From the IMG/VR virus record IMGVR_UViG_2671181136_000012: a stretch of 11,511 nt of DNA. One strand, 5' to 3'. The notes under the pieces were generated by a model. It worked only from the letters and a program-made list of their open reading frames with translations, was not told the DNA's origin and ran no database searches. The position numbers and the translations under genes are program-made. This stretch comes from a virus (taxonomy: Duplodnaviria; Heunggongvirae; Uroviricota; Caudoviricetes). The stretch's first letter is position 1. Each line of letters starts with the position of its first letter. This document shows, piece by piece, positions 703 through 10,737 of the stretch.

Positions 703-779
703 GCGTTGTTAGCTCAGCCGGACAGAGCAATTGCCTTCTAAGCAATCGGTCACTGGTTCGAATCCAGTACAGCGCGCCA
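703..779 (+). tRNA. argO: tRNA-Arg (anticodon UCU), argO/argU-like
   Basis: 77 nt with acceptor stem GCGTTGT/ACAGCGC (one G-U pair), anticodon loop CTTCTAA, T-loop GGTTCGAATCC and 3' GCCA. It resembles E. coli argU. Confidence 0.85.
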
Positions 780-886: not shown

Positions 887-1243
887 GTGTTGATTGAGTG
901 TTTGTTATACGGTCTAATGGTTTTTTCAGCATTAAATATTTATCATTCATATGGTGTGGGTAGAGTGAATATTGATGAGGCGTCGGGGTGTTTCATCCTT
1001 AGGCAGCGTATTGATATAGTCAATGCAGAACGAGCAAAGGCCTTCAGCCGTTTGACAGTTTTGTTCTGTACTCCTGATCGTCTTTCGGGAAGAGACGTTA
1101 TTATTCTGAATAGTGATGCTATACAGAGGGTTTGCGATGAGTTCATGGTGGCTAATTCAGAATTATTTGCTCTTGTTCAGGAGTACAACAGAATAGCCAG
1201 GACCTGTGGTATGGATGAACTTCGGATTACTCATCTGGGGTAG
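887..1243 (+). CDS. Hypothetical protein (118 aa from GTG 887; alternative start ATG 917)
   Basis: Six-frame ORF in an AT-rich segment directly after the tRNAs. There is no convincing Shine-Dalgarno sequence and no motif I recognise. Confidence 0.35.
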   Translation: MLIECLLYGLMVFSALNIYHSYGVGRVNIDEASGCFILRQRIDIVNAERAKAFSRLTVLFCTPDRLSGRDVIILNSDAIQRVCDEFMVANSELFALVQEYNRIARTCGMDELRITHLG

Positions 1244-1635
1244 ATACATATCTGGATTATCACCGGTTACGGTAAAAAGTGATTGCTTACTGTTTTTGTG
1301 AATGGCATTGCAGCAGCCGGATAATGTCAGTGCTGGCTGACGGTGTGCTGGTGGCGGGTGTGGTGGTTGCTGCTTTCCCGTTGCTGAAAAAGAAAACGCC
1401 AGACTGTTAGCCGGGTATCAGTTAGCGGGAGAAATTTTTAAATACTTCACAATTCAGGCGGTTGATTGTTGTCTGGTTTGCGGGGAGTTTGTTAAAAGAA
1501 ACTGGCATGGTGAATCCCCCTGTGCGGAGGGGCAATCAGCGAGTAGGTATATGGGATAATCGCGGATTCAGGTGCTGGTACTGAATTCACCGGGAGGCAC
1601 CCGGCACCATGCAATGGCACATAGCGCCACTCTCC

Positions 1636-1665
1636 AGCCCCTCTCCGGAGGGGCTGTTTATATTG
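1636..1665 (+). terminator. Rho-independent terminator-like hairpin
   Basis: Perfect 8-bp stem AGCCCCTC / GAGGGGCT with a 4-nt loop (TCCG), followed by a T-rich tract GTTTATATTGATTTT. Confidence 0.5.
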
Positions 1666-1690
1666 ATTTTGTCAGATGTGAGTAAACTCC

Positions 1691-2026
1691 TTATGGACTT
1701 TGTTGTTTTAGCCCATAAGGACATATTTGCAGAGTGCAACGGTTATTAAAGCATTCATTCAATACGTTATCTGTATTTGTAGGGCATTCCTGGCTGTTTT
1801 TGATTAAATTCCAGAATGTTTTATTGAATGGTACTACGTTGTAAATGGTTACAGGCAGCACTTTGTTATTGAGCATGATGCCTGTGTGAGTCAGTGTAAA
1901 TATACTTTCAGGAGGTAAGAAAGCATCCGATTGATACCAGATTATTAATTTTATTTTACTCCATATGACTGAAAAAGATATTCCGCATGATGGCTGGATA
2001 ACTGTATCAATCACAATCCACTTCAT
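1691..2026 (-). CDS. Hypothetical Cys-containing small protein (111 aa), AT-rich moron
   Basis: ORF on the minus strand with a good RBS (AAGGA, 6 nt before ATG at 2026). The gene is markedly AT-rich compared with its neighbours and is followed by a very AT-rich upstream region (2027-2270). Product has several Cys in the C-terminal half; no family recognised. Confidence 0.5.
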
Positions 2027-2286
2027 TTAGTTTCCTTGTTTATGCCTTGCTGGTGATGTTCTGAAAAGTATAAATGATATTTTTGATTGTAAACCATAGA
2101 GCAGAATTATTTTTCTGATGTTGTTTATTGTTTATTTAAATGCAGGGTGGTTTATATCTCGTCTTGTAGTTTATCCATGCATATCTGCTTGATGATGAGG
2201 TTTTTAATTAAGGTATGGTTTTGTGTTTTTTCTGTATTACATGTCAGGTATTTTAAAGAATCATTTTTCAGATGGTGGAAAGAACC

Positions 2287-4140
2287 ATGGCATTTAAACA
2301 CTATGATGTTGTCAGGGCGGCGTCGCCGTCAGATCTTGCGGAAAAGCTGACACATAAACTGAAAGAGGGCTGGCAGCCGTTTGGTAGTCCGGTGGCCATA
2401 ACCCCTTATACCCTGATGCAGGCGATTGCAGCAGAAGGTGATGTGGTCGTCAGTGGTGCAACTGAGCCGGAGTGGTACTACGTCATCGTACTGGCCGGGC
2501 AATCCAATGCCATGGCTTACGGTGAAGGGCTTCCGCTTCCGGATTCATACGATGCGCCCCATCCGCGCATTAAGCAACTGGCCCGTCGTAACACAGTGAC
2601 TCCCGGTGGTGAAGTATGCGTATTTAACGACATCATTCCTGCTGACCATTGTCTGCATGATGTTCAGGATATGAGTACGATTAACCATCCCCGGGCTGAC
2701 CTGAGCAAAGGGCAGTACGGCTGTGTCGGACAGGGCTTACATATTGCCAAAAAACTGCTTCCGTATATCCCTAATAATGCGGGGATCCTGCTGGTACCAT
2801 GCTGTCGTGGTGGTTCGGCATTCACCCAGGGCACGGAGGGGACATTCAGCGAGTCCACGGGGGCCAGTCAGGATTCGGCTCGCTGGGGAGTGGGTAAGCC
2901 GTTATATCAGGATCTGCTTTTCCGCACGAAGGCAGCATTGCAGAAAAACCCGAAAAACGTTTTGCTGGCGATATGCTGGATGCAGGGGGAATTCGATATG
3001 ACGAATGCCAGTTACGCCCAGCAGCCAGCAGCATTTCTTGCAATGGTACAGCAGTTCCGTGCTGACCTTGCCGGGCTGGCGGCGCAGTGTCACGGTGGAA
3101 GTCCGGCATCAGTCCCCTGGATTTGTGGCGACACGACATACGCGTGGAAACAAGAACACGGTACGCAATATGAAGTGGTATATGGTGCATATAAAGGTAA
3201 AGAATCCCAGCAGATTTATTTTGTTCCCTTTATGACCGATGGTAGCGGAGTTAATACACCGACAAACAACCCGTCAGAAGATCCTGATATTGCCGGGTCT
3301 GGTTATTACGGTTCGGCATCCCGAACGAACAAAAACTGGGTATCATCAAATCGCCCGACGCATTTCAGCTCATGGGCGCGTCGTGGCATTATTCCCGATC
3401 GTATGGCAACTGCTATTCTGAACGTAGCCGGTCGCACCTTAGCCTTCATTAGTGGTAAGGCACCGGAAATCAAACCCTCGCCCGGCGGCGACACGCCATC
3501 GGGGCCGTCTGAAGATGCATCCGTACGCACAATCTCCCTGTTGCCGACAGCCGGAGATGCTGCTGCGCAGGGCTGGAGCATTAAGAATGGCGGAATTCAG
3601 TTGTCAGATGGTGTATTTAAGATCACCAAGCAGAGCAATAAAGCCTGGTCCCTGACGCGCCCGGTGGATGACGCAGTCTCCCTGCTGACACGGGGTGGCA
3701 GACTGAGCTGTAAGTTTCGACTGTCAGGCGCACTGACCAACAATCAGTTCGGTCTGGGAATTTATCTGTATACCGATGTAGCGTTACCTGACGTCGTGGC
3801 GATGACCGGGACTGGTAACCCGTTCCTGATGTCGTTCTTCACCCAGACCACAGACGGCAAACTGAATCTGATGCATCACAGGAAAGCAGGAAACACAAAG
3901 TTGGGCGAGTTCGGGAATTACAGTAACGACTGGCAGACGCTGGAGCTGGTGTTCACCGCCGGCAGTGCCACGGTTACTCCGAAACTGAATGGAGTGGCTG
4001 GCCCGGCATTCCAGGTCATAAAAGACAGTCTGACACTGGGGCTGAATGCGCTGACGCTGACGGATATTACCAAAAATGCAACGTATGGCGTTGAGATAGA
4101 AAGTCTGGTGCTGGAGATAAATGCACCGGCATCATCATAA
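2287..4140 (+). CDS. nanS-p: Prophage sialate O-acetylesterase NanS-p-like (DUF1737 N-terminal region + SASA/SGNH esterase + C-terminal lectin-like domain)
   Basis: The N-terminus MAFKHYDVVRAASPSDL is DUF1737-like and is followed by the GQSNA esterase motif typical of SASA-family 9-O-acetylneuraminate esterases. Gene position (after the tRNA/stx locus, before the holin) is as in Stx and related lambdoid phages. Start taken at ATG 2287 (GGTGGAAAG upstream); the track ORF begins at ATG 2272 without an RBS. Confidence 0.8.
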   Translation: MAFKHYDVVRAASPSDLAEKLTHKLKEGWQPFGSPVAITPYTLMQAIAAEGDVVVSGATEPEWYYVIVLAGQSNAMAYGEGLPLPDSYDAPHPRIKQLARRNTVTPGGEVCVFNDIIPADHCLHDVQDMSTINHPRADLSKGQYGCVGQGLHIAKKLLPYIPNNAGILLVPCCRGGSAFTQGTEGTFSESTGASQDSARWGVGKPLYQDLLFRTKAALQKNPKNVLLAICWMQGEFDMTNASYAQQPAAFLAMVQQFRADLAGLAAQCHGGSPASVPWICGDTTYAWKQEHGTQYEVVYGAYKGKESQQIYFVPFMTDGSGVNTPTNNPSEDPDIAGSGYYGSASRTNKNWVSSNRPTHFSSWARRGIIPDRMATAILNVAGRTLAFISGKAPEIKPSPGGDTPSGPSEDASVRTISLLPTAGDAAAQGWSIKNGGIQLSDGVFKITKQSNKAWSLTRPVDDAVSLLTRGGRLSCKFRLSGALTNNQFGLGIYLYTDVALPDVVAMTGTGNPFLMSFFTQTTDGKLNLMHHRKAGNTKLGEFGNYSNDWQTLELVFTAGSATVTPKLNGVAGPAFQVIKDSLTLGLNALTLTDITKNATYGVEIESLVLEINAPASS

Positions 4141-8055: not shown

Positions 8056-8722
8056 TATTCTGCGGCGTGATGTACGCGCCGGGCTGCGAGCCCTGTTCAG
8101 GCCGGAGCCACAGACTGCCGTTGAATGGGCGGATGCCAGTTACTATCTCCCGAAAGAATCCGCATACCAGGAAGGGCGCTGGGAAACACTGCCCTTTCAG
8201 CGGGCCATCATGAATGCGATGGGCAGCGACTACATCCGTGAGGTGAATGTGGTGAAGTCTGCCCGTGTCGGTTATTCCAAAATGCTGCTGGGTGTTTATG
8301 CCTACTTCATAGAGCATAAGCAGCGCAACACCCTTATCTGGTTGCCGACGGATGGTGATGCCGAGAACTTTATGAAAACCCACGTTGAGCCGACTATTCG
8401 TGATATTCCGTCGCTGCTGGCGCTGGCCCCGTGGTATGGCAAAAAGCACCGGGATAACACGCTCACCATGAAGCGTTTCACCAATGGGCGTGGCTTCTGG
8501 TGCCTGGGCGGTAAAGCGGCAAAAAACTACCGTGAAAAGTCAGTGGATGTGGCGGGTTATGATGAACTTGCTGCCTTTGATGAGGATATTGAACAGGAAG
8601 GCTCTCCAACGTTCCTGGGCGATAAGCGTATTGAAGGCTCGGTCTGGCCAAAGTCCATCCGTGGCTCCACGCCCAAAGTGAGAGGCACCTGTCAGATTGA
8701 GCGTGCAGCCAGTGAATCGTAA
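8030..8722 (+). pseudogene. A: Terminase large subunit A, 5' fragment (about 229 codons), truncated by IS insertion
   Basis: Translation matches the lambda gpA N-terminus (MNISNSQ...[61 protein letters not shown]...ERAASES), then stops at TAA 8720-8722, which is created by the IS terminus GTAAGCG beginning at 8719. Confidence 0.85.
8246..8718 (+). repeat. Direct repeat copy 1 (473 bp, terminase A internal segment)
   Basis: Bases 8246-8718 are identical, base for base, to 10265-10737 (offset 2019) in every block I compared. Confidence 0.9.
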
Positions 8723-10264
8723 GCGACTCGTCAGAACCGTATTGATATTTACTGAGAGCTCAGATCAACTTTCCAGGGCAACAGATCGCGTACCCGGTTT
8801 GCCGGCCAGTCCTGGATATGTTCAATGACGTAACGCAGCCACTTTTCTGGCTCCACATTGTTCAGACGGCATGTGCCGATCAGCGAGTACAACACCGCCG
8901 CATGTTCACCACCGCTGTCGGAACCCGCGAACATCCAGTTTTTCCGGCCTACGGCCACTCCCCGTAAGGCGTTCTCTGCGATGTTGTTGTCGATTTCCAC
9001 CCAGCCATTACTGCAGTACACGTTCAGTGCATCCCACTGTTTCAGCAGGTATGCGAACGCTTTTGCCGTATCTGAGTGACGCGACAGTGTTTTCATCTGT
9101 TGCTGTATCCAGTCATACAGTGACTGCATCAGTGGCGCGGCTCTGGCTTTTCTTGCCGCCAGACGCTGTTCTGCTGAACAGCCCCGGACCTCTGCCTCGA
9201 TGGCATACAGTTCACCGATACGCTGCAGGGCTTCCGTGGTGATGTAGGTGGGCGCTCTTGCATGCACATCGTGGATTTTTCTCCGGGCATGAGCCATACA
9301 CGCGGCTTCCGTTATTCTGCCGGATTCGTATAACGCCCGGTAACCACCGTAAGCATCGGCCTGAAGCACACCGCTGTAACCGGCCAGGTGATTTTGTGGA
9401 TGGATACCTTTCCGGTCCGGACTGTACGCGAACCAGACCGCCGGGGGCATCTGTGAACCGGCGTTACGGTCATCACGGACGTAGACCCACAGCCGGGCTG
9501 TCCGGGTTTTACCGCTGCCCGGCTCCTGGACCGGGACGGGGATATCATCAGCATGGACTTTACCGGGCATCAGCACATACTGGCGCAGGACGTCATACAG
9601 CGGCTCCAGCAGTTCAGCAACAGCACCTGTCCAGCGCCCCAGTGTGGCACGGCTCAGCTCCACTCCCTGACGACGGTATATTTCTGACTGGCGGTATAAC
9701 GGCAGATGGTCTGCATATTTCCCGGTGACAACATGGGCCAGAAGCCCCGCTCCGGCATAACTGCGTGCAATGGGTTTTGAAGGTACTGGTGCCTGCACGA
9801 TATGGTCGCACCGGCAACAGGCCTGTTTCGGACGTTGTGTTTCGATAACCTTAAAGGCGCTGCTGATAAGCTCCAGTTGCTCTGACACATCACATCCCAG
9901 AGAACTGAGTTCACCACCACAGGCAGGACAGCATTCCTCTTCCGGCCGGATAACCCGGGTTTCACGGGGAAGTGAGGCCGGTAACGGTTTACGGGCTGAA
10001 GACTGGCGCAGGGCGGATGGCAGTACCGGGTCATATTGCTCACCCAGCGTTTCCGCCATTTCTTCCTGAAGTGCGCTGATTCGCTCCTGTGCTTCCTGTA
10101 TCTGCCGTTCGGTTTTTGCACGAAGTTTTTCTGAGCTTTTACCGAACTGCATGCGCTGCAGTTTTGCAACCAGCGCCTTCAGCCGGTTGATTTCGGAAGC
10201 ATAAGCCGCCACCCGCTGTGAGAGCAGGCAGTTGTATTCAGCCATCTGGCGGATGGTGTCCTGT
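8719..10264 (-). mobile_element. Truncated IS66-family insertion sequence (one terminus plus the tnpC-type transposase gene only; orfA/orfB and the other inverted repeat are absent)
   Basis: The terminus at 8719 begins GTAAGCG, the characteristic IS66-family inverted-repeat start. The segment contains only the 498-aa transposase ORF with 30 bp and 19 bp flanks. At 10264/10265 the element abuts internal terminase sequence with no inverted repeat. Confidence 0.75.
8749..10245 (-). CDS. tnpC: IS66-family transposase (TnpC/orf3-type)
   Basis: 498 aa with an N-terminal coiled-coil/leucine-zipper region, Cys motifs CCPACGGEL ... CCRCDHIV (zinc finger typical of IS66 TnpC), and the conserved C-terminal region ...[47 protein letters not shown].... 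Confidence 0.85.
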
Positions 10265-10737
10265 AATGTGGTGAAGTCTGCCCGTGTCGGTTATTCCAAA
10301 ATGCTGCTGGGTGTTTATGCCTACTTCATAGAGCATAAGCAGCGCAACACCCTTATCTGGTTGCCGACGGATGGTGATGCCGAGAACTTTATGAAAACCC
10401 ACGTTGAGCCGACTATTCGTGATATTCCGTCGCTGCTGGCGCTGGCCCCGTGGTATGGCAAAAAGCACCGGGATAACACGCTCACCATGAAGCGTTTCAC
10501 CAATGGGCGTGGCTTCTGGTGCCTGGGCGGTAAAGCGGCAAAAAACTACCGTGAAAAGTCAGTGGATGTGGCGGGTTATGATGAACTTGCTGCCTTTGAT
10601 GAGGATATTGAACAGGAAGGCTCTCCAACGTTCCTGGGCGATAAGCGTATTGAAGGCTCGGTCTGGCCAAAGTCCATCCGTGGCTCCACGCCCAAAGTGA
10701 GAGGCACCTGTCAGATTGAGCGTGCAGCCAGTGAATC
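10265..10737 (+). repeat. Direct repeat copy 2 (473 bp, terminase A internal segment)
   Basis: Identical to 8246-8718. Beyond 10737 the sequence continues as uninterrupted terminase A (…ERAASESPHFMRFHVACPHCGEEQY…), whereas copy 1 is followed by the IS terminus. Confidence 0.9.

Follow-up and report, generated by a model that had tools for sequence, protein, structure and literature searches.

An AT-rich gene antisense to the late genes of a lambdoid prophage is very probably iraL, encoding an RssB anti-adaptor with a conserved four-cysteine tail

Background

IraL was described in uropathogenic Escherichia coli CFT073 as a paralogue of IraM, 58.9% identical to it and encoded on the 'potB genomic island', which stabilises the stress sigma factor RpoS against the ClpXP protease during log-phase growth (Hryckowian et al. 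2014, mBio; PMC4045071). Deletion of iraL lowers RpoS and shortens its half-life in both CFT073 and Shigella sonnei, the log-phase half-life being halved (5 vs 2.5 min), and K-12 has more RpoS in log phase when supplied with iraL on its native promoter (PMC4045071). In the same study His6-IraL was found to co-purify with CBP-RssB, and in two-hybrid assays IraM bound both domains of RssB and IraL the N-terminal receiver domain alone. The start of the iraL transcript was mapped by 5' RACE on log-phase CFT073, its promoter was assigned to sigma-70, and the gene was reported to be enriched in urinary-tract and Shigella isolates (PMC4045071). The iraL mRNA is also about 3-fold higher at 37 C than at 23 C (PMC12890032), and IraL levels are up in a fur mutant.

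The mode of action is best described for IraM, whose complex with RssB has been crystallised (PDB 8TWD; PMC10844676). [quoted passage not shown] The missing tail was called 'less conserved' and flexible, with zinc and cysteines unmentioned, and IraM 1-78 still binds RssB in its absence (PMC10844676).

Here we analyse an 11,511-nt stretch of viral DNA (the window), in which an original prediction, made from the sequence alone, had singled out an AT-rich ORF transcribed against the phage late genes. We compare this gene and its surroundings with the known anti-adaptor genes, and examine the conservation of the C-terminal cysteines across the family.

Results

Identity of the gene

The protein encoded by the window ORF is identical at all 111 residues to CFT073 IraL (C_RS06710, equated with c1429 in PMC12890032; WP_000871291.1), which carries the IraM annotation in the CFT073 record and lies there in a lambdoid prophage. 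The two coding sequences agree at 334 of 336 nucleotides and both differences are synonymous. When positions 1400-2300 were compared by megablast with complete E. coli genomes, thousands of matches were obtained that carry the ORF under the annotation 'anti-adapter protein IraM', and K-12 IraM aligns with the window protein without gaps at 62% identity. The protein also scores 162 bits with NCBIfam NF007393 (IraM subfamily; PRK09919), for which the cutoff is 121, and its residues 1-110 correspond to model positions 1-113 of 114; Pfam scans gave no match even at E<=10, and the only PHROGs match was phrog_4407, a family of 'unknown function'.

The iraL allele group has been defined by at least 95% nucleotide identity to CFT073 iraL across the whole CDS (PMC4045071). 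The window gene belongs to this group, iraM copies reaching only about 71% nucleotide identity, and its promoter, judged by a threshold of 96% identity to CFT073, belongs there too: from -100 to -1, 98 of 100 positions are identical (the differences are at -28 and -1), and one further difference lies in the UTR at +31. The gene order within the window likewise places the gene in a lambdoid prophage and not beside e14; the integration site itself is outside the window. Because the protein is identical, the upstream DNA is nearly so and the published RACE end is matched, we regard it as almost certain that the window ORF is iraL, carried by a lambdoid prophage as a lysogenic-conversion ('moron') gene, and that its product blocks RssB and stabilises RpoS; no feature of the sequence was seen to contradict this assignment. 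The gene is therefore already known, named and experimentally characterised, an identity that the original prediction had missed.

An in-frame stop codon lies directly 5' of the iraL ATG, so the ORF is not the tail of a longer frame, and the full-length match to NF007393 together with the identity to a characterised protein argues that it is not a chance ORF. The same in-frame stop and family match dispose of the possibility, raised earlier, that the ORF is a fragment of a larger disrupted gene. The GC content of the ORF is 35.1% (GC3 35.7%) and that of the 240-245 bp upstream 29.2-29.4%, as against 53.2% (GC3 55.2%) in the nanS-p esterase gene next door, 55.3% in the STnc100 region on the other side and 50.7% in the whole window. 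Like H-NS-silenced xenogeneic genes, iraL is AT-rich relative to the genome (35% and 29% vs about 51-53%) and located on a mobile element. The tRNAs, the DUF3927 gene, STnc100, nanS-p, holin, lysozyme, Rz and terminase are all on the plus strand, and iraL, on the opposite one, is consequently antisense to the late transcription unit. Its protein combines a PmrD-like beta-barrel core (residues 1-78) with a C-terminal CX10CX4CX4CP tail, and four of its five cysteines (positions 14, 81, 92, 97 and 102) fall within the last 31 residues. What the original prediction had read from the letters is borne out on these points: an AT-rich 111-aa ORF with low-GC upstream DNA between neighbours of much higher GC (measured here as about 53%), a good ribosome-binding site (Table 1), transcription against the late operon and several cysteines (81, 92, 97 and 102) in the C-terminal half.

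Table 1. Coordinates of the features discussed in the text; positions are those of the window unless another record is named.
Feature	Position	Strand	Basis and remarks
Phage tRNA genes	527-602 and 703-779	+	ARAGORN: tRNA-Met (CAT), tRNA-Arg (TCT)
sRNA STnc100	1476..1665	+	Convergent with iraL; Rfam RF02076, 132 bits vs gathering score 47
AT-rich island, 33% GC	1660..2290	.	iraL and the divergent iraL / nanS-p intergenic region; composition
iraL coding sequence	1691..2026	-	ATG start, 111 aa, stop included; ORF list and homology
iraL 5' UTR, 33 nt	2027..2059	-	Transcription start site 2059; match to published 5'-RACE end
Shine-Dalgarno AAGGA	2033..2037	-	6 nt before the iraL ATG; read from sequence
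iraL promoter region	2060..2093	-	Hexamers read relative to the published start site
PhoP-box-like direct repeat TGTTTATTGTTTATTTA	2122..2138	+	About 71 bp upstream of the iraL start site; weak lead
Phage 2851 IraL/IraM-like ORF	L004 5001-5324; NC_049943.1 about 24239-24562		Antisense to late operon

Promoter and regulation

The published 5'-RACE end of iraL, ACATCACCAGCAAGGCATAAACAAGGAAACCA (PMC4045071), matches the minus strand of the window from 2059 to 2028 at 31 of 32 bases. Read relative to this start site, the promoter has a candidate -35-like hexamer, TTTACA (2093-2088), and two candidate -10 hexamers, TACTTT (2070-2065, with a 17-nt spacer) and TATACT (2072-2067, with a 15-nt spacer). 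The difference from CFT073 at -28 (A/T) adjoins the candidate -35-like hexamer; a -35 point mutation in some iraL copies had been noted previously, its effect on expression not being known there (PMC4045071). A generic sigma-70 promoter scan did not call the published promoter and proposed two other weak sites, one within the iraL ORF and one further upstream.

The PhoP regulation of iraM motivated a search for PhoP boxes, which returned the direct repeat listed in Table 1. It has one mismatch to KGTTTA-N5-KGTTTA and lies in an AT-rich region; 0.13 matches are expected per window, and at least one occurred in 26 of 200 shuffles. The repeat is kept in CFT073 and O104:H4 and is statistically weak. 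Alignment of the regions upstream of iraL, iraM and the related ORF of phage 2851 revealed no common promoter architecture.

The original prediction had described the gene as H-NS-silenced and had proposed that it is expressed from the lysogen. The paralogue iraM is reportedly repressed by H-NS. For iraL, full silencing as stated is not supported, because the gene is active in unstressed log-phase cells; the rise from 23 C to 37 C is compatible with partial control by H-NS without demonstrating it. H-NS is not mentioned in PMC4045071, and no H-NS data on iraL were found in the literature searched. Expression from the lysogen, on the other hand, is supported by the gene's own promoter, by the RACE signal in log-phase CFT073 and by the drop in RpoS on deletion (PMC4045071).

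Fold and RssB contacts

Both structure prediction and remote homology search, which had been suggested with the original prediction, lead to IraM. The top PDB sequence match of the window protein is 8TWD (E=9e-32), and an AlphaFold2 model, built from the 41-sequence family alignment with a core pLDDT of about 90 (about 85-97 over residues 1-80), finds 8TWD chain A as its top fold match (TM 0.90 by target, rmsd 1.2 A), with PmrD structures ranking behind it. [quoted passage not shown] The clusters that contact the C-terminal domain and the linker differ between IraL and IraM (T13S, L75I, H63N, I64V), and the contact-residue pattern, as read from the alignment, fits binding to the N-terminal domain only.

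The C-terminal tail

An exhaustive HMMER search yielded 71 IraM/IraL family representatives, the named members coming from Salmonella, Citrobacter, Enterobacter, Kosakonia, Cronobacter, Klebsiella/Raoultella, Intestinirhabdus and Dryocola. Conservation of the tail was evaluated on 41-42 full-length Enterobacteriaceae representatives with a mean identity of 30%, among which the only invariant columns are W72, C81, C97 and C102; C92 and P103 are nearly invariant, C92 being present in 40 of 41 rows with an alignment shift as the exception. C14 is not conserved, most family members having T at this position. The tail motif can be written CP(G)N-x8-C-x4/5-C-x4-CP(Y/F)G, and all 41 full-length representatives have the knuckle-like Cys4 spacing CX8-17CX3-5CX3-4CP. 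As an alignment restricted to full-length proteins could bias this picture, the family matches covering only the core were also checked, and they proved to come from genes that have the Cys4 tail when intact but are frameshifted or truncated in these copies. As side observations, several metagenomic members are frameshifted in the tail (P0032, P0045, P0061, P0067, P0071 and P0073), and the iraL copy of E. coli EC17CM6 (L006 1708-2043) has an internal stop and is labelled a pseudogene; loss of iraL does occur.

In the AlphaFold2 model the IraL tail has a pLDDT of 54-68, as would be expected for a small metal site modelled without its metal. When a profile of the tail was compared with PDB sequences, the only similarity to emerge was to a C3H1 zinc finger and was not significant (E=4.6). 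The other RssB and anti-adaptor papers searched do not address the tail cysteines or zinc. With IraL being cytoplasmic and its cysteines set in CP knuckles, the Cys4 tail is most plausibly zinc-binding, a reading that comes from the motif and its conservation. Since IraM 1-78 still binds RssB, the tail probably controls the stability or activity of IraL. We put forward more tentatively, as a possibility we rate somewhat below even, that the C-terminal 30 residues of IraL and IraM are a conserved Cys4 metal-binding module (CPxN-x8-C-x4/5-C-x4-CPYG), possibly a zinc or redox switch or a degron. The suggestion of a small disulfide-bonded or metal-binding protein, made in the original prediction, is thus upheld in part: the four C-terminal cysteines are a fixed feature of the family and zinc is plausible, but the known function is inhibition of RssB through core residues 1-78 and not that of a Cys-knot.

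Neighbourhood and distribution

The order of genes in the window is Q, a methylase, tRNAs, DUF3927, STnc100, antisense iraL, nanS-p, holin, lysozyme, Rz and terminase, and the CFT073 and O104:H4 prophages share this order. When the whole window was searched, no complete E. coli genome covered 80% or more of it at a single place. Of 5426 complete E. coli genomes, about 1415 (about 26%) have a copy of iraL with at least 95% nucleotide identity, and most of the others have only the iraM gene of about 71% identity. In 1430 genomes iraL is embedded in a conserved 901-bp block, which indicates that the gene travels in a fixed module, and iraL is also found in 4 phage records with 98% protein identity. 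Horizontally acquired cargo, as the gene had been called, is therefore an apt description, given its location in a lambdoid prophage, its presence in about 26% of complete E. coli genomes and its occurrence in sequenced phages.

On its 3' side iraL converges with the sRNA STnc100, whose terminator hairpin (1635-1656, by terminator scan and fold) lies 35 nt past the iraL stop codon. As no intrinsic terminator was detected on the minus strand in the interval 1400-1700, the iraL mRNA may run antisense into STnc100. In RefSeq, the STnc100 stretch of other genomes is overlaid by a partial 'hypothetical protein' pseudogene.

Several other features of the window deserve mention. The nanS-p-type gene (2272-4140, plus strand) encodes a full-length 622-aa esterase with DUF1737, SASA and DUF6645 domains; in the iraL prophage of CFT073 and in several others, only a short DUF1737 fragment of it is left. 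Where comparator prophages have three tRNA genes (Ile, Arg, Arg), the window has two, separated by a 100-bp gap, and the tRNA corresponding to its CAT tRNA is given as tRNA-Ile in RefSeq for related prophages. Between the tRNAs and the DUF3927 gene, an AT-rich stretch (41.5% GC) contains an ORF of 118 aa (887-1243, plus strand) that belongs to phrog_2873 and has no Pfam or NCBIfam match. Finally, a 473-bp segment of the terminase large-subunit gene is present twice as an exact direct repeat (8246-8718 and 10265-10737), and between the two copies lies a 1546-bp fragment with an IS66/ISCro1-family transposase ORF (8749..10245, minus strand). The repeat does not correspond to a normal IS target duplication, and either the prophage is defective by rearrangement or the repeat is an assembly oddity.

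Discussion

The regulatory scheme that we propose for this locus is as follows. Owing to its own sigma-70-type promoter (start at 2059) and its antisense orientation to the late unit, iraL would be expressed while the prophage is repressed. The 111-aa product, predicted to be cytoplasmic, would use its core of residues 1-78, a PmrD-like beta-barrel plus helix, to bind the receiver (N-terminal) domain of the adaptor RssB; with RssB blocked, RpoS would not be delivered to ClpXP and would be stabilised, so that the host would carry raised RpoS already in exponential growth. Because the STnc100 terminator lies just beyond the 3' end of iraL, two further effects can be proposed: in the lysogen, this terminator would shield iraL from upstream transcription, and in lytic growth, Q-antiterminated late transcription reading through it would collide with iraL and switch it off. 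This lytic-phase switch-off may be moot in the present prophage, whose terminase gene is disrupted. The invariant C-terminal Cys4 tail would act in this scheme as a small module that binds zinc and on which stability or activity, and not RssB binding, depends.

Other readings of the gene were weighed against this one. RssB is cytoplasmic, and stable disulfides are not expected in the cytoplasm. The four cysteines clustered in the last 31 residues could in principle belong to a secreted or periplasmic disulfide-bonded small protein, but we rejected this reading, to which we attach next to no credence, since the N-terminus is strand 1 of the barrel contacting RssB (I4, I6) and not a signal peptide, and knuckle-like motifs of the CP...CPYG kind more typically mark metal sites. 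Scarcely more weight can be given to the view that the protein is a PmrD-type connector, protecting another phosphorylated response regulator such as PmrA and not acting on RssB. The AlphaFold2 core does resemble E. coli and Klebsiella PmrD (4HN7, 2JSO, 2RQX; TM 0.70-0.73 by target), a likeness also noted in the IraM structure paper (PMC10844676), and the precomputed Pfam labels of IraM/IraL family members list the PmrD family PF11183; however, the sequence identity is only 14-21%, PmrD lacks the Cys4 tail, and the very same protein has been found to bind RssB and to alter RpoS stability (PMC4045071). The PF11183 family itself is not matched at E<=10, so that the likeness to PmrD is one of fold only.

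It is also very improbable that iraL is here a silent, H-NS-repressed remnant or a pseudogene without current function. Such a reading could appeal to the very low GC of the gene and its promoter, to the internal stop in EC17CM6 and to the frameshifted family members, but the ORF of the window is intact and identical to an active protein, its CDS differences are synonymous, and log-phase expression with a phenotype has been published for it (PMC4045071). More substance, although we still consider it unlikely, may lie in the idea that iraL mainly benefits the phage, raised RpoS or sequestered RssB tuning induction or superinfection and host stress fitness being a side effect. The gene occupies a moron slot adjoining the lysis cassette and is present in sequenced phages, and about 40 Stx2/Stx2c phage records have an intact relative (73.6% identity) between stx2B and nanS-p; however, iraL persists in defective prophages like that of the window, with its disrupted terminase gene, which points to host-level selection, and a different ultimate purpose would leave the mechanism unchanged. 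We therefore retain the assignment to iraL, acting on RssB.

Under this assignment the window gene is of interest as a prophage gene that alters the general stress response of its host, RpoS being kept up even in growing cells, and prophages carry it into roughly 1/4 of sequenced E. coli. Naming it iraL also explains its odd composition and orientation, which are those of a prophage moron with its own promoter. Residual interest attaches to the invariant Cys4 tail, which the structures and mutagenesis found in the literature searched do not address; if it is a metal-binding module, the tail could set the stability or activity of the anti-adaptor and make RpoS stabilisation depend on metal or oxidative status. 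A second point is an unannotated third family member located beside stx2B in Stx2/Stx2c phages.

Relation to described anti-adaptors and fold relatives

Among the known systems, IraP and IraD achieve the same outcome as IraL, inhibition of RssB and stabilisation of RpoS, but with unrelated sequences and folds, through other RssB interfaces and in response to other signals (phosphate starvation; DNA damage). PmrD shares with IraL an unusual beta-barrel-plus-helix fold and is likewise a small binder of a receiver domain; it targets PmrA-P and protects this regulator.

The third family member is an ORF of 107 aa in Stx2c phage 2851 (NC_049943), 73.6% identical to IraL, with the same orientation, a slot upstream of nanS-p and the Cys4 tail; it lies directly downstream of stx2B, has a sequence intermediate between IraL and IraM, and differs from iraL in its promoter. 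Besides phage 2851, about 40 other Stx2/Stx2c phage records have an intact ORF of this IraL/IraM type, antisense between stx2B and nanS-p; most of the records leave it without annotation, and no study of it was found in the literature searched. The slot of iraL corresponds to the position of stx in Shiga-toxin phages.

IraM of K-12 (YcgW) is like IraL a member of NF007393, with a PmrD-like core, four C-terminal cysteines and RssB as its target. It is induced by Mg2+ starvation through PhoPQ, whereas IraL acts in unstressed log phase; its locus lies beside the e14 prophage with a promoter unrelated to that of iraL, and it engages both domains of RssB, in contrast to the binding of IraL to the N-terminal domain only in two-hybrid assays.

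CFT073 IraL, finally, is the same protein, with a near-identical promoter and 5' UTR and in the same prophage slot, from Q and the tRNAs to nanS-p and the lysis genes. The two copies differ by three promoter/UTR bases (-28, -1 and +31) and two synonymous CDS changes, and the prophages differ in that nanS-p is full length (622 aa) in the window and truncated in CFT073, and in that the terminase gene of the window contains an IS66-family fragment. RssB binding, the effect on RpoS half-life and the transcription start site have been published for the identical CFT073 protein, and by sequence they would be expected to hold for the window allele as well.
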